Under the pieces are notes generated by a model that was not told the origin of the DNA, did no database searches, and worked only from the letters and a program-made list of their open reading frames with translations. From contig JAWMAR010000015.1 in assembly GCA_036785375.1 (NCBI GenBank), forward strand, positions 5,084,001 to 5,148,000: DNA of 64,000 nucleotides. Direction: 5' to 3'. Both the position numbers and the translations under genes were made by a program. Origin of the DNA: Leucoraja ocellata. Taxonomy: Eukaryota. Positions 19,378 to 60,369 of the stretch are shown piece after piece. The stretch's first letter is position 1; the number at the start of each line of letters is the position of its first letter.

Positions 19378-19930
19378 TTAGAGTTTAGACTACATAGAAT
19401 ACAGCGCAGAAACAGGCCATTTGGCCCACCAAGTCCGTGTCCACCAACATCACATACACTAGCATTACCCGACACTGAGGATAATTTACAATTTACAATT
19501 TACAAAAGCCAATTCACTTACACAAAATGCTGGAAAACTCCGCAGGACTAGCAGCATCTCTGGAGAGAAGGAATGGGTGAAGTTCTGGGTCGAGACCCGT
19601 CTTCACACTTCAGTCGTCCCAGTCTGAAGAAGGGTCTCGACCCGAAACGTCAACCATTCCTTCTCTCCAGAGATGCTGCCTGTCCAGCTGAGTTACTCCA
19701 GCATTTTTTCTCTATCCAGTGTAAACCAGCATCTGCAGTTCCTTCCTACCAATCAACTTAAAAATCTGCATGACTTTGGAGTGTGGGAGGAAACCAGAGC
19801 ACCCGGAGAAAACCCACGTGGTCTCAGGGAGAATTGTATAAACTCCGTATAGACAGCATCCGTAGTCAGAATCCAACCTGGGTCTCTTGGGCAATAAAGC
19901 AGCAACACTAACACTGCACTACTGTGCCAC
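19378..19930 (-). mobile_element. HE1-type V-SINE interrupted by an inverted PLE-terminus pair
   Basis: Tail at 19378-19520 and head at 19750-19930 flank the insert. Confidence 0.8.
19521..19750. mobile_element. Inverted pair of PLE-terminus elements; + arm with intact hammerhead-like core
   Basis: ~19525-19609 is the reverse complement of ~19621-19708; CTGAAGA-A-GGGT-CTCG-ACCC-GAAACGTC at 19624-19651. Confidence 0.85.
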
Positions 19931-21281: not shown

Positions 21282-21334
21282 GGGGTGGAAGATTGCAACC
21301 TTCATGTGGTCCGCCCTGTTTCGACGAATGCTAT
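21282..21334 (+). ncRNA. Predicted minimal HDV/CPEB3-like ribozyme
   Basis: P1 GGGGTGG/CCGCCCT, P2 ATTGCA/TGCTAT, P3 ACC/GGT, L3 TTCATGT, J4/2 CGAA. Confidence 0.7.
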
Positions 21335-21429
21335 CAGCCCGGCGTGCACAATCAAATAAGATCAAATAGAACAAGTTGTCCTACAACTGTAGGCTGTGCA
21401 CACCATACACAAGAAGAAGAAGAAGAAAA
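21282..21429 (+). mobile_element. ~140-bp (GAA)n-tailed short retroelement with 5' HDV-like ribozyme, copy 1
   Basis: Imperfect 9-bp TSD agcatcaga / agcgtcaga (21270-21278, 21430-21438); homologous to 23423-23562 and 59698-59838. Confidence 0.85.
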
Positions 21430-23422: not shown

Positions 23423-23562
23423 GGGGTGGAAGATTGCAACCTTCATGTGGTCCGTCCTGTTTCGACTAATACAATCAACTCGACGTGCACAAGCGGAAGA
23501 TCAAATAGAACAAGTTGTCCAACAACTTTAGGCTGTGCACGCCACACACGAAAGAAGAAGAA
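23423..23562 (+). mobile_element. ~140-bp (GAA)n-tailed short retroelement with 5' HDV-like ribozyme, copy 2
   Basis: Perfect 12-bp TSD gttgctaacctt (23411-23422, 23563-23574); element starts exactly at GGGGTGG. Confidence 0.88.
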
Positions 23563-25927: not shown

Positions 25928-28100
25928 TTTATTTTATTAGAAGTAAGCACAGTCATATGGCACCAAAGTGCCTAATATATATTTTCATAATACATTTTAT
26001 GTACAACTTCTTTTTTTTTTGTTACATTGAAAAAAGATGAGAATAAGAAAAAGAAGTTAGATAGTAAAGGATAGAAAAATGTGAAATATATAGTGTGTGA
26101 AGAAAGAAAACGAGTAAATGAAGAAAGTTGAGAGAGAAAATAGTGAAAAGAAAAGGAGATCATTATTTATAGTCTTGACCAACCCTCGTCCAGTCCTGAA
26201 ACAGTTATTTTTTACAATTGTGTTGCACCATATGATTCCAAAAAAACGACGAATGGAGACCAACTCGTTATGAATTGGTCTGATTTATCCATTAGGAGGA
26301 ATCGCATTTCCTCAAGATGAGCGGTGTCCAACATACTTGCAATCCACATTTTAAGCGTTGGTATTGATGTACCCTTCCAAAATTTAAGTATTAATTTTTT
26401 TGCTATTATTAAACCATAATTAAGGAATAGATTTTGAGACGCGTTCAATTTATTCCCATCTTCCATTACACCAAATATAATCATTTCAGTATTAGGTTCC
26501 ATTCTTGTCTTGAATAATTTTGTAAGTATTTCAAAAATATCATTCCAAAATCTATAAAGTTTTATGCAGGAAACTAAGGAGTGTGTTATAGTTGCCTTTT
26601 GGGCTAGACATTTATCACAAGTGGCGGATATATTTGGATAAAATTTGTTCAATCTTGTTTTTGAATAATATAATCTATGTACAATTTTAAATTGTATTAG
26701 ATTATGTCTTACATTAATTGAACATTTGTGAATATATATCAGGTATTTTTCCCATTTAACCTTCGTAATTTTTATCATTAATTCCCGTTCCCACTCTTCT
26801 CTAAGTACCTCTGTCGATGGTAGGTCTATATTTAGAATACTATTATATAAATAGGATATTAATTTTTGTGAGTCAGCTTCAATATTCATTGCTTCTTCCA
26901 ATAAGTCAGGAGTTACTTTTTGATATCCTTGTATATATTTTTTCACAAAGTCGCAAATCTGAAGATATTTAAAATATTGGTTGTTTTTCAATTTAAATTT
27001 TAATTGTAGTTGTTGGAATGATAGTAGGTTTCCTATTTCGTACATATCCCTGATCCTTCTAATTCCGAGACTTTCCCATTGGTTATATGTCTTATCAATA
27101 AGAGATGGTTTAAATAAAGGGTTATTCGCAATTGGCATTAACAGTGATAGATTTCTTAATTTTAAAGATAATTTTATTTGTTTCCAAATTCTTATTGTAC
27201 CATATATAATTGGGTTCTTCTTATATATTGTGTTATTCAGTTTTTTGGGGGAAAAGAGGATCGTTCCTATATTACAAGGATGACAATCCTCCTTCTCCAT
27301 TTTTATCCATTCTGTCTGTTGTGTAGAACTATCCAACCAATAAATCATATTCTTAATATGCACTGCCCAGTAATAATACATAAAATTCGGAAGTGAAAGT
27401 CCCCCGACCTCTTTTGGTTTACATAAGTGTTTTTTTGTGATTCTATGTGATTTATAGTCCCAAATATAATTTGTAATGTTAGAGTCTAATTTTAAAAAAA
27501 AAATATTTTGGTATATATACCGGTATAGACTGAAATAGGTATAGTAATTGTGGTAAGAAGATCATTTTTATTGCATTTATTCTACCTAATAATGATAAGG
27601 GAAGTGTTTTCCAAAATTTAATCCGTGTATTAAGTTTATTTAATAAAGGTATGAAATTAGCATTGAATAATGCTTTATATTTTCTAGTAATCTGAATACC
27701 CAAATATTTAAATTTTTCTGTTGCGATTTTAAAGGGGAACTTCAGTAAGTGTGTAGGTTCTTGAGGTTTTAATGTCATGATTTCGCTTTTGTTCCAGTTT
27801 ATTCTATATCCAGAAAAAGACCCAAATTCCTCTATTAAGTTTAATAAATTTGGTATGCTCGTTTGTGACTTTGTAATATATAAAAGTATATCGTCTGCAT
27901 ATAATGAGATTTTATTCTTTGAGTCCCTGGTATTATAGCCCTGAATATTCGGATGAATTCTTATACTTTCAGCCAGGGGTTCTATCATAAGGGCAAATAG
28001 CAGGGGTGATAGTGCACATCCCTGCCTATTACCCCTTGATAGTTGAAATTTTTGAGATAACATGTTATTAGTTAAAATTCTTGCCATTGGTTTATCATAT
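25896..28100 (-). mobile_element. 5'-truncated L1-clade LINE with poly(A) tail
   Basis: 15-bp TSD AGGTTAGACGAACTT (25881-25895, 28101-28115); T-run to 25922; AT-rich; inserted in a CR1 relic. Confidence 0.93.
26212..28087 (-). pseudogene. L1-type ORF2 C-terminal half (RT motifs plus Cys-rich domain), frameshifted near 27490
   Basis: RGNRQGCALSPLLF, LYADDILL, FKYLGIQI in 27479-28087; CDKC...H...C motif in 26212-27381. Confidence 0.9.
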
Positions 28101-28374
28101 AGGTTAGACGAACTTGGATTGTTTTTCTCTCTGGAGCGTCAGAAGCTGTGGGATGAACCGATGGAAGTGTATACAATTATGAGAGGCACAGATAGGTTAG
28201 ATAGTCATTTATTTATCCCTTGGCCAGCCAAACAAAGAAAATCACTAAGAAATAATTAACAAAACCAAGGGGAGCAGCAACTACCACACCCATTCAACAA
28301 ATTCAACACCCATTCTCAAAAAAAACCATTCCCATAAAACCAGCAGGTTGTTTATTGAAGGGAACCTTTACCCA

Positions 28375-39204: not shown

Positions 39205-40938
39205 CTACTTCGAGCCTGCACCGTCATTCAATATGATCATGGCTGGTCATCCAACTCAGTATCCTGTACCTGCCTTCTCTCCATACCCCCTGACCCCTTT
39301 AGCCACAAGGGCCACATCTAACTCCCTCTTAGCCAATGAACTGGCCTCAACTACATTCTGTGGCAGAGAATTCCAGAGATTCACCACTATCTGTGTAAAA
39401 AATGTTTTCCTCACCTCAGTCCTAAAAGATTTCCCCTTTATCCTTGAACTGTGACCCCTTGTTCTGGACTTCCCCAACATCGGGAACAATCTTCCTGCAT
39501 CTAGCCTGTCCAACCCCTTAAGAATTTTGTAAGTTTCTATAAGATTCCCCTCAATCTTCTAAATTCTAGTGAGTACAAACCGAGTCTATCCAGTCTTTCT
39601 TCATATGAAAGTCCTGACATCCCAGGAATCAGTCTGGTGAACCTTCTCTGTACTCCCTCTATAGCAAGAATGTCTTTCCTCAGATTAGGAGACCAAAACT
39701 GTATGCAATATTCCAGGTGTGGTCTCACCAAGACCCTGTACAACTGCAGTAGAAACCTCCTTGTTCCTATACTCAAATCCTTTTGCTATGAATGCTAACA
39801 TACCATTTGCCTTCTTCACTGCCTGCTGCACCTGCATGCCTACTTTTAATGACTGGTGTACCATGACACCCAGGTCTCATTGCTTCTCCCTTTTTCCTAA
39901 TCGGCCACCATTCAGATATTAGTCTACTTTCCTGTTTTTGCCACCAAAGTGGAAACCTCACATTTATCCACATTATACTGCATCTGCCATGCATTTGCCC
40001 ACTCACCCAGCCTATCCAAGTCACCTTGCAGCCTCCTAGCATCTTCCTCACAGCTAACACTGCCCCCCAGCTTCGTGTCATCCGCAAACTTGGAGATGTT
40101 GCATTCAATTCCCTCGTCCAAATCATTAATATATATTGTAATTAGCTGGGGTCCCAGCACTGAGCCTTGTGGTACCTGGGTCTCCTCCATGGCCTCAGCG
40201 AGCAGCACCGGAAATTGGAGGAACAGCACCTCATATTCCGTTTGGGGAGTCTGCACCCCGGGGGCATGAACATCGAATTCTCCCAATTTTGTTAGTCCTT
40301 GCTGTCTCCTCCCCTTCCTCAGCCCCCCTGCTGTCTCCTCCCATCCCCCAGCCTTCGGGCTCCTCCTCCTTTTCCCTTTCTTGTCCCCACCCACCCCCGC
40401 CCCCGATCAGTCTGAAGAAGGGTTTCGGCCCGAAACGTTGCCTATTTCCTTCGCTCCATAGATGCTGCTGCACCCGCTGAGTTTCTCCAGCTTTTTTGTG
40501 TAACCTTGTGGTACCTCACTAGTCACTGCCTGCCATTCTGAAAAGGACCCATTTACTCCCACTCTTTGCTTCCTGTCTGCCAGCCAGTTCTCTATCCACA
40601 TCAATACTGAACCCCCAATACCGTGTGCTTTAAGTTTGTATCCTAATCTCTTATGTGGAACCTTGTCGAAGGCCTTCTGAAAGTCCAGATATAACACATC
40701 CACTGGTTCTCCCTTATCCATTCTACTAGTTACATCGTCGAAAAAGTCTATAAGATTCGTCAGACATGATTTATCTTTCTTAAATCCATGCTGACTTTTA
40801 CCAATGATTTCACCACTTTCCAAATGTGTTGCTATCCCATCTTTAATAACTGACTAGCAGTCTCCCCGCTACTGACGTTAGACTAACTGGTCTGTAATTC
40901 CCCGTTTGCTCTCTCCATCACTTTTTAAAAAGTGGGGC
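39205..40938 (-). mobile_element. CR1/HER1 LINE fragment (RT region to 3' end), interrupted by a PLE insert
   Basis: SQHGFKKDKSCLTNL, YLDFQKAFDKVPH, VPQGSVLGP, KFADDTKLGG, RPHLEYCIQFWSP. Confidence 0.95.
40178..40503 (+). mobile_element. 5'-truncated young Penelope-like insertion
   Basis: 13-bp TSD ccttgtggtacct (40165-40177, 40504-40516); near-identical to the reverse complement of ~57541-57868; hammerhead-like core at 40412-40439. Confidence 0.92.
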
Positions 40939-43237: not shown

Positions 43238-43630
43238 CTTCATTCTTACGTAAGTGTCTCTGTTGTCGAGGTGGGAGAGGCGGAATGAAGTGCCGTTGAG
43301 ATGGCATCCTCCGTACTCCTGTTCTTGCAGTGGGCAAACTGATAGGGATCCAATGTGGGGGGTAGGCAGCCTTTGAGGTGTGCCAGGACCAGCCTCTCGA
43401 AGCACTTGGTGATGATGGGAGTAAGTGCAACTGGCCAGAAGTCGTTGAGGCTTGCCGCAGTGGAGTGTTTTGGCACCAGCACGATGGAGGTGGTTTTAAG
43501 GCACGTGGGGACAACTGCTTGGGCAAGTGACAGGTTGAAGATGTCAGTCCGGACGTCTGTCAGCTGCGCAGCACAGGCCCTGAGGACGTGCCCGGGGATG
43601 CCGTCATGGGCCAGCAGCCTTAAGTGCATT
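43238..43630 (-). pseudogene. Rex1/Babar RT N-terminal fragment
   Basis: [69 protein letters not shown] across frames. Confidence 0.9.
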
Positions 43631-43877
43631 AATCCTACTCAGTGCCATGTCCTGTGGGATCTACCCCTGCAAACATCAAAATGCCTTAAGTCAATGTTCT
43701 TCGGTTTGTGACTGATGCAGCTCTGTACATGAAAAAAGCTGCTTGTGCTCTTAAAGTTTTATTCCCCAAAATGTTGCATTTGACATGCTTAGCTCACAGA
43801 CTCAATAGAATTGCCGAGCACATACGTAGCTTGTTTCCAAATGTCGATCGCCTAGTTCCCAATGTCAAGAAAATCTT

Positions 43878-57504: not shown

Positions 57505-58664
57505 TGTTTAAGAGGGAACTGCAGATGCTGGAGAATCGAAGGTTACACAAAAAAGCTGGAGAAACTCAGCGGGTGCAGCAGCATCTATGGAGCGAAGGAA
57601 ATAGGCAACGTTTCGGGCCGAAACCCTTCTTCAGACTGATCGGGGGCGGGGGTGGGTGGGGACAAGAAAGGGAAAAGGAGGAGTAGCCAGAAGGCTGGGG
57701 GATGGGAGGAGACAGCAGGGGGCTGAGGAAGGGGAGGAGACAGCAAGGACTAACAAAATTGGGAGAATTCGATGTTCATGCCCCCGGGGTGCAGACTCCC
57801 CAAACGGAATATGAGGTGCTGTTCCTCCAATTTCCGGTGCTGCTCGCTGTGGCCATGGAGGAGACCCAGGACAGAGAGGTCGGAGACGGAGTGGGAGGGG
57901 GAGTTGAAGTGCTGAGCCACCGGGAGGTCAGCTTGGTTATTGCGGACCGAGCGGAGGTGTTCGGCGAAACGATCGCCCAACCTCTGCTTGGTCTCACCGA
58001 TATAGATCTGCTGACATCTAGAGCAGCGGACGCAATAGATGAGGTTGGAAGAGATGCAGGTAAACCTCTGTCGCACCTGGAACGATTGCTTGGGTCCTTG
58101 AACGGAGTCGAGGGGGGAGGTAAAGGGACAAGTGTTGCATCTCTTGCGGTTGCAAGGGAAAGTGCCCGGGGAGGGGGTGGACCGAGAGGGAAGGGAAGAA
58201 TTGACAAGGGAGTTATGGAGGGAGCGGTCTTTGCAGAAGGCAGATATGGGGGGAGATGGGAAGATGTGGCGAGTAGTGGGGTCACGTTGGAGGTGGCGAA
58301 ACTGACGGAGGATTACTTTTTGTATGTGACGGCTGGTGGGGTGAAAGGTGAGGACTAGGGGGACTCGGCCCTTGTTGCGAGTGCGGGGATGGGGAGAGAG
58401 AGCAGTGTTGCGGGGTATGGAAGAGACCCTGGTGCGAGCCTCATTTATGGTGGAGGAGGGGAACCCCCGTTCCCTGAATAGTGAGGACATTTCAGATGTC
58501 CTGGTGTGGAACGCCTCATCCGTGGAGCAGATGCGGCGTAGACGGAGGAATTGGGAGTAGGGGATGGAGTCCTTACAGGAAGCAGGGTGGGAAGAAGTGT
58601 AGTCCAGATAGCCATGGGAGTCAGTGGGTTTATAGTGTATGTCGGTTAGAAGTCTATCACCTGC
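57505..58664 (-). mobile_element. 5'-truncated Penelope-like element with terminal region
   Basis: Open RT-tail/GIY-YIG frame followed by a 3' terminus with hammerhead-like core at 57607-57634. Confidence 0.93.
57750..58664 (-). CDS. Penelope-like ORF, C-terminal part (RT thumb, Cys-rich linker, GIY-YIG endonuclease); 5'-truncated, frame open upstream of the annotated ATG at 58490
   Basis: TDIHYKPTDSHGYLDYTSSHP..SIPYSQFLRLRRICS; CNRKRCNTC; NLIYCVRCSRCQQIYIGETKQRLGDRFAEH; GMNIEF. Confidence 0.9.
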   Translation of the reverse strand, partial: AGDRLLTDIHYKPTDSHGYLDYTSSHPASCKDSIPYSQFLRLRRICSTDEAFHTRTSEMSSLFRERGFPSSTINEARTRVSSIPRNTALSPHPRTRNKGRVPLVLTFHPTSRHIQKVILRQFRHLQRDPTTRHIFPSPPISAFCKDRSLHNSLVNSSLPSRSTPSPGTFPCNRKRCNTCPFTSPLDSVQGPKQSFQVRQRFTCISSNLIYCVRCSRCQQIYIGETKQRLGDRFAEHLRSVRNNQADLPVAQHFNSPSHSVSDLSVLGLLHGHSEQHRKLEEQHLIFRLGSLHPGGMNIEFSQFC

Positions 58665-58857
58665 AACTGGGTAGCAACAAGCACCTGATCAAATTCTGTT
58701 GCCTAGCATGCTTGAACATCAGACCGTGCAATTAAACTGCTGAGCCTGTAGTGTTAGACTTGCAAAGCAAACAAAATCTAGACATATTTGACAATCAAAG
58801 TGATGGTGAAAACTAATTCATCCAGTTTTCTCATTTGTTCTATGTCACCACATTAGT

Positions 58858-59539: not shown

Positions 59540-59680
59540 TCAAGAAGGAACTGAAGATGCTGTAAAATTGAAGGTAGAATCGGTCTGAAGAAGGGTTTGT
59601 GCCCGAAACGTTGCCTATTTCCTTCGCTCCATAGATGCTGCCGCACCCGCTGAGTTTCTCCTGCACTTTTGTCTACCTTT
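59540..59680. mobile_element. PLE-terminus element (+) preceded by a short inverted terminal piece
   Basis: CTGAAGA-A-GGGT-TTGT-GCCC-GAAACGTT at 59585-59612; aggaactgaagatgctg piece in reverse upstream. Confidence 0.8.
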
Positions 59681-59697
59681 AAGTTACAGCACCAGCT

Positions 59698-59838
59698 TCT
59701 TCTTCTTCTTGCATATGGAGTGCACAGCCTAAATTTGCAGGTCAACTTGTTTTATTTGATCTATTTGTTTGTGAACGTCAGGTCGATTGCATTAGTCGAA
59801 ACAGGGTGGACCACGTGATGGTTGCAAACTTCCACCCC
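59698..59838 (-). mobile_element. ~140-bp (GAA)n-tailed short retroelement with 5' HDV-like ribozyme, copy 3
   Basis: Reverse complement GGGGTGG AAG TTTGCA ACC ATCACGT GGT CCACCCT GT TTCGA CTAA TGCAAT; 8-bp TSD caccagct (59690-59697, 59844-59851). Confidence 0.85.
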
Positions 59839-60369
59839 AACTTCACCAGCTCCGCTCCCAAGAGTCTTCCAAAAACTGCCAATGCAACATGGTGGTATAG
59901 TATAATTGCTTTAATCCTGACCTCGGGGTCTATCTGTGTGGAGTCTGTACCTTCTCCCCATGACCAGGTGGGTTCCCTTATGTCATCTAGTTTCCTCCCA
60001 CATCCCAAAGATGTGGGGGCTGTTAGGTTAATTGCTAATATACACATCCACTTGTGTGTAAGTGAAGGGTAGAATCTGGAGGGAGTTGGTGAGAATCTGC
60101 TGAGAATAAAATGTGGGATTATTATCGGACAAGTGTAAATGGGTGTGTGATGATCAGTGAGGGTGGGCCAAAGACTTGGACACCATGTTTATGGCAACTC
60201 ACCCCCTTGACCACACATTTCCATCTCCACCTTCAGCGTTGCTTCCTGCTTACTGTATACATTTCTTTGGTGAAAGTTTTTGAATATGAGATCTTTATAT
60301 ATGTGTCTTTATATATGAGATCCAATTTTAGAATACAAGTCAGTCTTACATACTGTAATGCCTTTCAAT

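Follow-up and report, generated by a model that had tools for sequence, protein, structure and literature searches.

The window analysed here, a stretch of 64,000 nucleotides of Leucoraja ocellata DNA, contains a short motif that resembles an HDV-type ribozyme with the core of the mammalian CPEB3 ribozyme and no P4 helix. Two questions arise from this locus: whether a vertebrate repeat carries a natural minimal ribozyme, and whether vertebrate ribozymes of the CPEB3 type may derive from mobile elements. We consider in turn the fold of the motif, the repeat to which it belongs, the relatives of that repeat in other sequence collections and the 5' ends of its RNA.

Results

A ribozyme fold without P4

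Read pair by pair on the minus strand, on which all of its parts lie, the motif forms a nested double pseudoknot of the HDV type, 54 nt in length (59785–59838), in which G1 (59838) opens the element described below and is also the end of the predicted cleavage product. The original prediction gave the ribozyme about 53 nt from 59786; it reaches one base further, to 59785, because P2 has seven positions. The 5' strand of P1 (nt 1–7, 59832–59838) pairs fully with nt 30–36 (59803–59809), as had been claimed, and this 7/7 helix, opened by a G1-U36 wobble as an HDV-like P1 should be, is found in all three copies of the repeat in the window. A two-nucleotide J1/2 leads to P2, the 5' strand of which (nt 10–16, 59823–59829) faces nt 48–54 (59785–59791) from G10-C54 to A16-U48 and pairs at six of seven positions, the exception being U11-U53. 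P3 (3/3 pairs) and its 7-nt L3 occupy 59810–59822, the loop retaining the CACGU part that had been noted originally, and P1.1 is a single pair, C22-G37, with U21 and U38 beside it. Only five nucleotides stand in place of P4 (nt 39–43, UUCGA, 59796–59800) between the GU linker and C44, which bears out the feature that first drew attention to the locus. J4/2 (59792–59795) reads C44 U45 A46 A47, with the putative catalytic cytosine at 59795.

In available passages of PMC6326823 the descriptor of HDV-like ribozymes has a 7-bp P1 opened by G1-Y and a catalytic C opening J4/2, and C44 holds this latter place in all three copies; CUAA deviates from the CRRA of the descriptor at its second position. 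The U20-G25 reverse wobble, which the same passages describe as crucial for catalysis, is absent from the copy at 59838, where A20 (59819) replaces U20, and is kept in the two other copies and in 98% of the family in all four sequencing runs sampled. When a generic HDV descriptor allowing a spacer of 1–41 nt was applied to both strands of the 64 kb, only the three repeat copies matched, the copy at 59838 only once the U20 requirement was relaxed, because of its A20; each of 20 dinucleotide shuffles gave no match (20/20). The fold at 59785–59838 is real and beyond chance. Rfam returned no ribozyme match, either for the window at the gathering threshold or for the copy at 59838, and a U4 match beside that copy was rejected as chance. 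A hairpin GU-UUCG-AC, which had been raised as a competing fold that would sequester the catalytic C, is ruled out on energy, being unfavourable by +1.7 to +2.0 kcal/mol with a pair probability of at most 0.06.

The ribozyme heads a short retroposon

A non-autonomous retroposon of about 142 nt begins with these 54 nt; it is composed of the ribozyme, a body of about 74 nt and a (GAA)n tail, and flanked by 12-bp target duplications that abut G1 in all three copies. Copy A (59838–59697, minus strand) comprises the ribozyme, a body at 59711–59784 and a tail at 59697–59710; its 5' target duplication (59839–59850) matches the 3' duplication (59685–59696) at 9/12 positions. Copy B (21282–21425, plus strand; duplication 10/12) retains U20, has CGAA in J4/2 and sits within another SINE-like repeat, and copy C (23423–23562, plus strand; duplication 12/12) retains U20 with CUAA. 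Each copy pairs 6/7 in P2, with the mismatch at a different place in each. Searches of the window with blastn, nhmmer and a covariance model gave no further copy, the next best match having an E-value of 0.024. A T occupies position -1 in all three copies (59839, 21281 and 23422) and in the top rows of 5' loose ends (59839, runs X1 and X12), and likewise in 36 of 58 metagenome loci described below, among the matches listed; it may mark a preference of the target site or of cleavage.

Ribozyme sequences share 48–50 of 54 bases between copies and the bodies 57–62 identities in about 74. A palindromic GUGCAC/GUGCAC stem closes the body in copies B and C and is broken in copy A; among 200 shuffles, 5 and 8 fold as well as the stems of B and C respectively, and 194 as well as that of A. 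The minimum free energy of the whole element is no better than that of shuffles (z from -0.08 to +1.04), which is to be expected of pseudoknots, yet is not support. No two-sided pair changes occur among the three copies, a number that gives no power, and a MAFFT alignment of eight ribozymes, which misplaces J4/2, was left out of the covariation analysis. Neither Rfam nor ARAGORN detected a Pol III head of the tRNA, 5S or 7SL type, and the element begins at G1 of the ribozyme. It has no open reading frame; its target duplications and simple-repeat tail fit a bipartite, non-autonomous Vingi derivative. One frame of the body reaches its stop codon just ahead of the tail with the ending L-Q-[IL], a weak resemblance to the L-x-[IVL] ending of 14 of 40 full-length Vingi-type proteins.

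Copy A is a poor representative of the family because of A20, its P2 mismatch and an upstream competitor of P2. The competitor, a chance feature of this copy, is a stretch of 10 bases (59879–59888, minus strand) complementary to C44-U53 and lying 41–50 nt upstream; when 60 nt of flank are included, a pseudoknot-free model, which overstates competitors, gives C44 a pairing probability of 0.98. The copy at 59838 is a decayed member and, on these predictions, probably a poor cutter.

Other repeats surround the element. A Penelope-type ORF fragment (57753–58688, minus strand) gives a weak GIY-YIG match, and the best 6 of its 314 relatives are all elasmobranch proteins, 58–67% identical. About 100 nt from the HDV-like element, an abundant repeat contains a core resembling that of a hammerhead ribozyme, its stem II short (59585–59640, plus strand), and further cores of this kind occur at 19624, 29471 and 40412 on the plus strand and at 57634, 49066, 15032 and 14206 on the minus strand; the hammerhead pattern gave nine matches in all, the ninth (38971) being unrelated. 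Hammerhead-like cores are typical of the ends of Penelope-like elements. Reverse-transcriptase fragments of other LINEs lie on the minus strand at 26215–28138, 39927–40853 and 43249–43638.

The family keeps the fold

We sampled the family with 4 of 24 sequencing runs, aligned to 59681–59905. Organisms A and E yielded 4111 and 4557 matching contigs, and two RNA runs of organism B, a relative, yielded 2613 and 2239 matching reads; the summed depth of these runs is not a copy number. Depth is confined to about 59689–59840 in all four runs and falls to flank level beyond, which marks the borders of the element. The majority letters differ from the copy at 59838 at nt 20 (U, 98%) and nt 11 (A, 95–97%), so that L3 is restored to UUCACGU, identical to that of CPEB3 as the original prediction held for the consensus, and P2 to 7/7. 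The accompanying claim, that the consensus J4/2 is the CGAA of CPEB3, proved wrong: the copy at 59838 and copy C have CUAA, which is also the family majority, and G45 is a minority (9–21%) in all four runs. U45 removes a CpG at the catalytic C (59794–59795), and the G45 subfamily may be exposed to CpG decay.

Variants above 15% are found in the ribozyme only at nt 8 (in J1/2), nt 32 (U-A to U-G) and nt 45 (in J4/2), and none breaks a pair; C22, G37 and C44 are absent from the best 40 of 46 variant rows. CpG-type changes reach 3–11% at C24, G25 and G42, and run X24 alone has variants of 7–10% at nt 27, 35, 36 and 39, those at C35 and G27 (7%) being disruptive of pairing. A family-specific pattern had no match in viral contigs and none in metagenome contigs. 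The idea that a vertebrate repeat harbours a natural, minimal ribozyme of the HDV-like kind without P4 is supported for the family, by structure, by conservation in thousands of copies and by the RNA ends at G+1 described next, its activity being a prediction; the copy in which it was noticed represents it poorly.

RNA ends at the predicted cleavage site

RNA evidence comes from organism B and may derive from any copy; the figures are counts of reads and not of molecules, for loose ends among the rows listed. In run X23 (single-cell), 526 of 2239 reads match the element up to 59838 and no further; three additional C follow, and then one non-genomic string common to these reads (agreement 0.8). 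Another 141 run on into A-rich flanks at 59839. In run X24 (bulk), 250 of 2613 reads part from the element at the same point with a mixed consensus (agreement 0.44), and 211 run on into one flank at 59840. The strings at the junction are presumably template-switch oligos. At the tail, 118 and 173 reads of X23 are joined to poly(T). No RNA read is at least 99% alike to the copy at 59838, for which the table of read beginnings and ends is empty.

Strand invasion would consume a genomic G and would not add three, according to available passages of PMC4534009, so that genuine 5' ends at G+1 are the most likely source of these reads. RNAs of the element in a relative most likely start, then, at the predicted cleavage site. 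Such ends would be left by cleavage and by an internal promoter alike, and self-cleavage itself is a prediction from the modelled fold.

The core is a signature of Vingi LINEs

The passages available from Kojima 2018 (PMC5786205) state that bipartite derivatives without an ORF are made only by RTE, Ingi, Vingi and R2 elements. Four Vingi 5' ends printed in the portion of its supplement consulted begin with a G-run and contain L3 UUCACGU, the CCCU-GU junction and C-N-A-A-U. Vingi architecture, as an excerpt of PMC13708176 gives it, is APE and RT without RNase H.

A scan of metagenome contigs for L3 and the CCCU-GU core, with a spacer of 4–33 nt, found at least 117 loci; many are redundant, and a small number of related assemblies supplied most of them. 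Among the matches listed, 58 of 117 pass a test of the helices that forms no part of the pattern; their spacers are 19–30 nt and none lacks P4. These reduce to 35 distinct sites, which are not independent because most belong to one LINE family, and at 25 of the 35, again among the matches listed, sequence on the same strand and no more than 600 nt away matches a Vingi-type protein; of the ten without such a match, seven had less than 400 nt of sequence. Six loci (L014, L016, L017, L054, L093 and L114) have good P1 and P3, another register of J4/2 and P2, and contexts that look unrelated. The core pattern had no match in viral contigs and eight in prokaryote genomes, none of which (0/8) has the helices.

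The metagenome LINE is about 3.3 kb in length, and its relatives are proteins of 1000–1050 aa in which Pfam detects APE and RT but no RNase H. It ends in an AAG-type tail, makes duplications of 11–14 bp and has given rise to a bipartite derivative of 289 nt by internal deletion, with a 14-bp duplication (L027, L050 and L106, apparently one site in several assemblies). The 5' end of the window element shares the Vingi core while its helices differ, so that the likeness is a match of signature and not of high identity. No Vingi-type fragment occurs in the window, in which tblastn gave only RT matches of 25–37% and a Pfam scan of all 173 frames of at least 75 aa (173/173) found RT, zf-RVT, GIY-YIG and otherwise weak matches only. 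The body of the element did not match the 3' ends of the metagenome LINE, no cartilaginous fish is among the named homologues of the LINE protein, and an Atlas search returned generic RT clusters only. By sequence comparison, the CPEB3-like core is to be read as a signature of Vingi LINEs.

Vingi 5' ends and the CPEB3 ribozyme

When the gharial Vingi-2_Gav 5' end (from the supplement of PMC5786205) is set against CPEB3 (from the template oligos in the supplement of PMC6326823), 51 of 54 compared bases are identical by eye: 37/40 up to and including the start of P4, and 14/14 over the last part of P4 and on to the end of P2, with only distal P4 differing. This identity takes in P1, P2 and P3, helices that otherwise vary freely among families. 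In the same PMC5786205 supplement, the middle part of alligator SINE2-1_AMi closely resembles the CPEB3 ribozyme, as does Vingi-2_Gav; CPEB3 is not mentioned in the text of Kojima 2018. One metagenome locus, present in two assemblies (301–379 of both L099 and L104), scores 66.5 bits on the CPEB3 model RF00622, for which the gathering cut-off is 35; it has a longer P4, and no Vingi ORF matched within 294 nt downstream. Among six other metagenome loci tested, four score 26–31 bits, under the 35-bit cut-off. The window copy at 59838 gives no RF00622 match at an E-value of 10 and, with P4 absent, falls outside the CPEB3 class.

The window motif itself resembles CPEB3 in the core alone, a likeness that for this pair may be due to convergence. 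Vingi LINEs are a stronger bridge to CPEB3 than this direct likeness, and a direction from element to host is proposed. The link between CPEB3 and mobile elements that had been raised gains support, then, but indirectly, through the 5' ends of Vingi LINEs; drawn directly it is weaker, for the two have in common no more than the core with the G-run and CCCU ends, and their helices differ.

Discussion

The 54 nt are probably the head of a bipartite, non-autonomous retroposon of about 142 nt, most likely mobilised by Vingi, of which the head would cleave itself and a LINE protein would retrotranspose the RNA. Copies would be transcribed largely by read-through from host sequence, and the head would fold co-transcriptionally into the HDV-type double pseudoknot without P4. 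By analogy with HDV chemistry, C44 and the U20-G25 metal site would then cut the RNA just 5' of G1. The released RNA, beginning at G+1 and carrying the 3' stem and GAA tail, would be taken up by the protein of a partner LINE, which would use the stem and tail for target-primed reverse transcription and so leave duplications of about 12 bp abutting G+1. The partner would belong to the Vingi clade (APE-RT, no RNase H) and act in trans; it is only by inference a Vingi element, because the searches did not turn up the LINE that mobilises the window element.

It is unlikely, on balance, that the head serves mainly as an internal promoter like Pr77, with capped Pol II transcripts starting at G+1 and a ribozyme fold that is secondary or left over from a parent LINE. 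Pr77 itself combines the two functions at a single +1, and the L1Tc cleavage site coincides with the start of transcription; moreover, three unencoded C are usual for capped RNA, T-1/G+1 fits the pyrimidine/purine (YR) initiator rule, and the tail reads joined to poly(T) (118 and 173 in X23) are what short, discrete transcripts would give. A promoter alone, however, would not need the helices and catalytic positions that the family majority keeps, nor common variants that are neutral to structure, and the poly(T) joins may come from oligo-dT mispriming on the A-rich GAA tail.

Quite improbable is a partner other than Vingi, such that the same self-cleaving head would be processed for RTE, Ingi or another LINE and the CPEB3-like core would have arisen by convergence. 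RTE and Ingi elements also bear 5' ribozymes and make bipartite derivatives, L1Tc (an Ingi element) shares the single-pair P1.1, all helices differ from those of CPEB3, with no RF00622 score for the copy at 59838, and the partner LINE was not found. Against this, the exact L3 and CCCU-GU core heads Vingi-type ORFs at 25 of 35 sites among the matches listed, and the window copies match the main family of LINE heads also at nt 6–8, 10, 18–19, 27–28 and 30–31, beyond the letters that the search imposed. A last reading would have the fold inactive throughout the family, five nucleotides being too short for the gap, and would trace the reads with adaptor to an artefact of library preparation at the G-run, since G-rich sites do promote template-switch artefacts. 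It is very hard to credit, given that strand invasion would replace and not add G, that its register (59839) shows the A-rich flank consensus, that abalone has a 5-nt replacement of P4 and that P4-less silkmoth R2 ribozymes cleave.

Starting from a Vingi-mobilised, self-cleaving head, we also put forward a wider proposal, tentatively and as slightly more apt to fail than to hold: that Vingi-type retroposons were the source of the vertebrate CPEB3-type ribozymes, that mammalian CPEB3 is a domesticated Vingi 5' end, and that in sharks or rays this same lineage of elements gave rise to a retroposon of about 140 nt, through which active 54-nt ribozymes were scattered by the thousand across the genome, where they would cut host transcripts in vivo. 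This would give a concrete and testable origin to the CPEB3 ribozyme, which is studied for its role in memory and for which the literature passages searched give no source. We found no link between Vingi and CPEB3 in the literature searched, and subscription papers, Repbase or Dfam may already name the likeness or the element; the parts of Bendixsen 2021 available contain nothing on the origin of CPEB3, on transposition or on mobile elements.

Comparison with known systems

Both the loss of P4 in HDV-like ribozymes and bipartite retroposons headed by ribozymes are already known; a high-copy vertebrate element of about 140 nt whose head lacks P4 and whose RNA ends lie at G+1 was not found in the literature searched. 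Such a family offers a natural library of a minimal HDV-like ribozyme at very high copy number in a vertebrate, and because its G+1 RNA ends are visible in public data, rules relating sequence to activity could be read from the natural copies. Few natural templates would be smaller than a 54-nt head joined to a short 3' module, and the LINE clade concerned is now used in gene-writing platforms (PMC13708176).

NARTc and L1Tc of Trypanosoma cruzi, Ingi elements with the Pr77-L1TcRz ribozyme (PMC3383444, PMC3185411), invite comparison: NARTc, like the window element, is short and non-autonomous, with the HDV-like cleavage site at its first base, and the single-pair P1.1, target duplications and ambiguity of promoter and ribozyme at +1 are shared as well. 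NARTc differs in having 263 nt, a 77-nt ribozyme with P4 and a poly(A) tail, whereas the window element has about 142 nt, a 54-nt ribozyme without P4, a GAA tail and a vertebrate host. The Vingi 5' ends of PMC5786205, in the portion available, share the G-run start, L3 UUCACGU, CCCU-GU and C-N-A-A-U with the window element and have known internal-deletion derivatives, and the metagenome example adds an AAG-type tail and duplications of 11–14 bp, but the four printed ends and all 58 helix-passing metagenome loci among the matches listed keep P4, and the sequences of the helices differ. CPEB3 (RF00622) resembles the window family in its 2-nt J1/2, 7-bp P1 and P2, 3-bp P3, majority L3 and single C-G P1.1 with U-U, and differs in retaining P4, in CGAA, in the sequence of its helices and in being single-copy and intronic.

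Minimal HDV-like ribozymes, some of them metagenomic, and theta ribozymes (Riccitelli 2014, as cited elsewhere; Kienbeck 2024, PMC10879173), as described in the passages at hand, resemble the window motif in lacking P4 and measuring about 50 nt. Theta ribozymes differ in being about 99% phage-borne and often linked to tRNAs, the eukaryotes searched in the accessible part of PMC10879173 being human, mouse and protists; ARAGORN found no tRNA in the window, and the motif is associated with neither a phage genome nor a tRNA 3' end. Closest in the loss of P4 itself are the R2 ribozymes of silkmoths, which lack it in 5/5 moth species, and the abalone ribozyme, which has only 5 nt in its place (Eickbush 2013, PMC3774820, in the sections available). 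By the same account the moth R2 ribozymes have J1/2 loops of 216–498 nt and use 28S sequence, whereas the window element is compact, dispersed and present in very high copy number.
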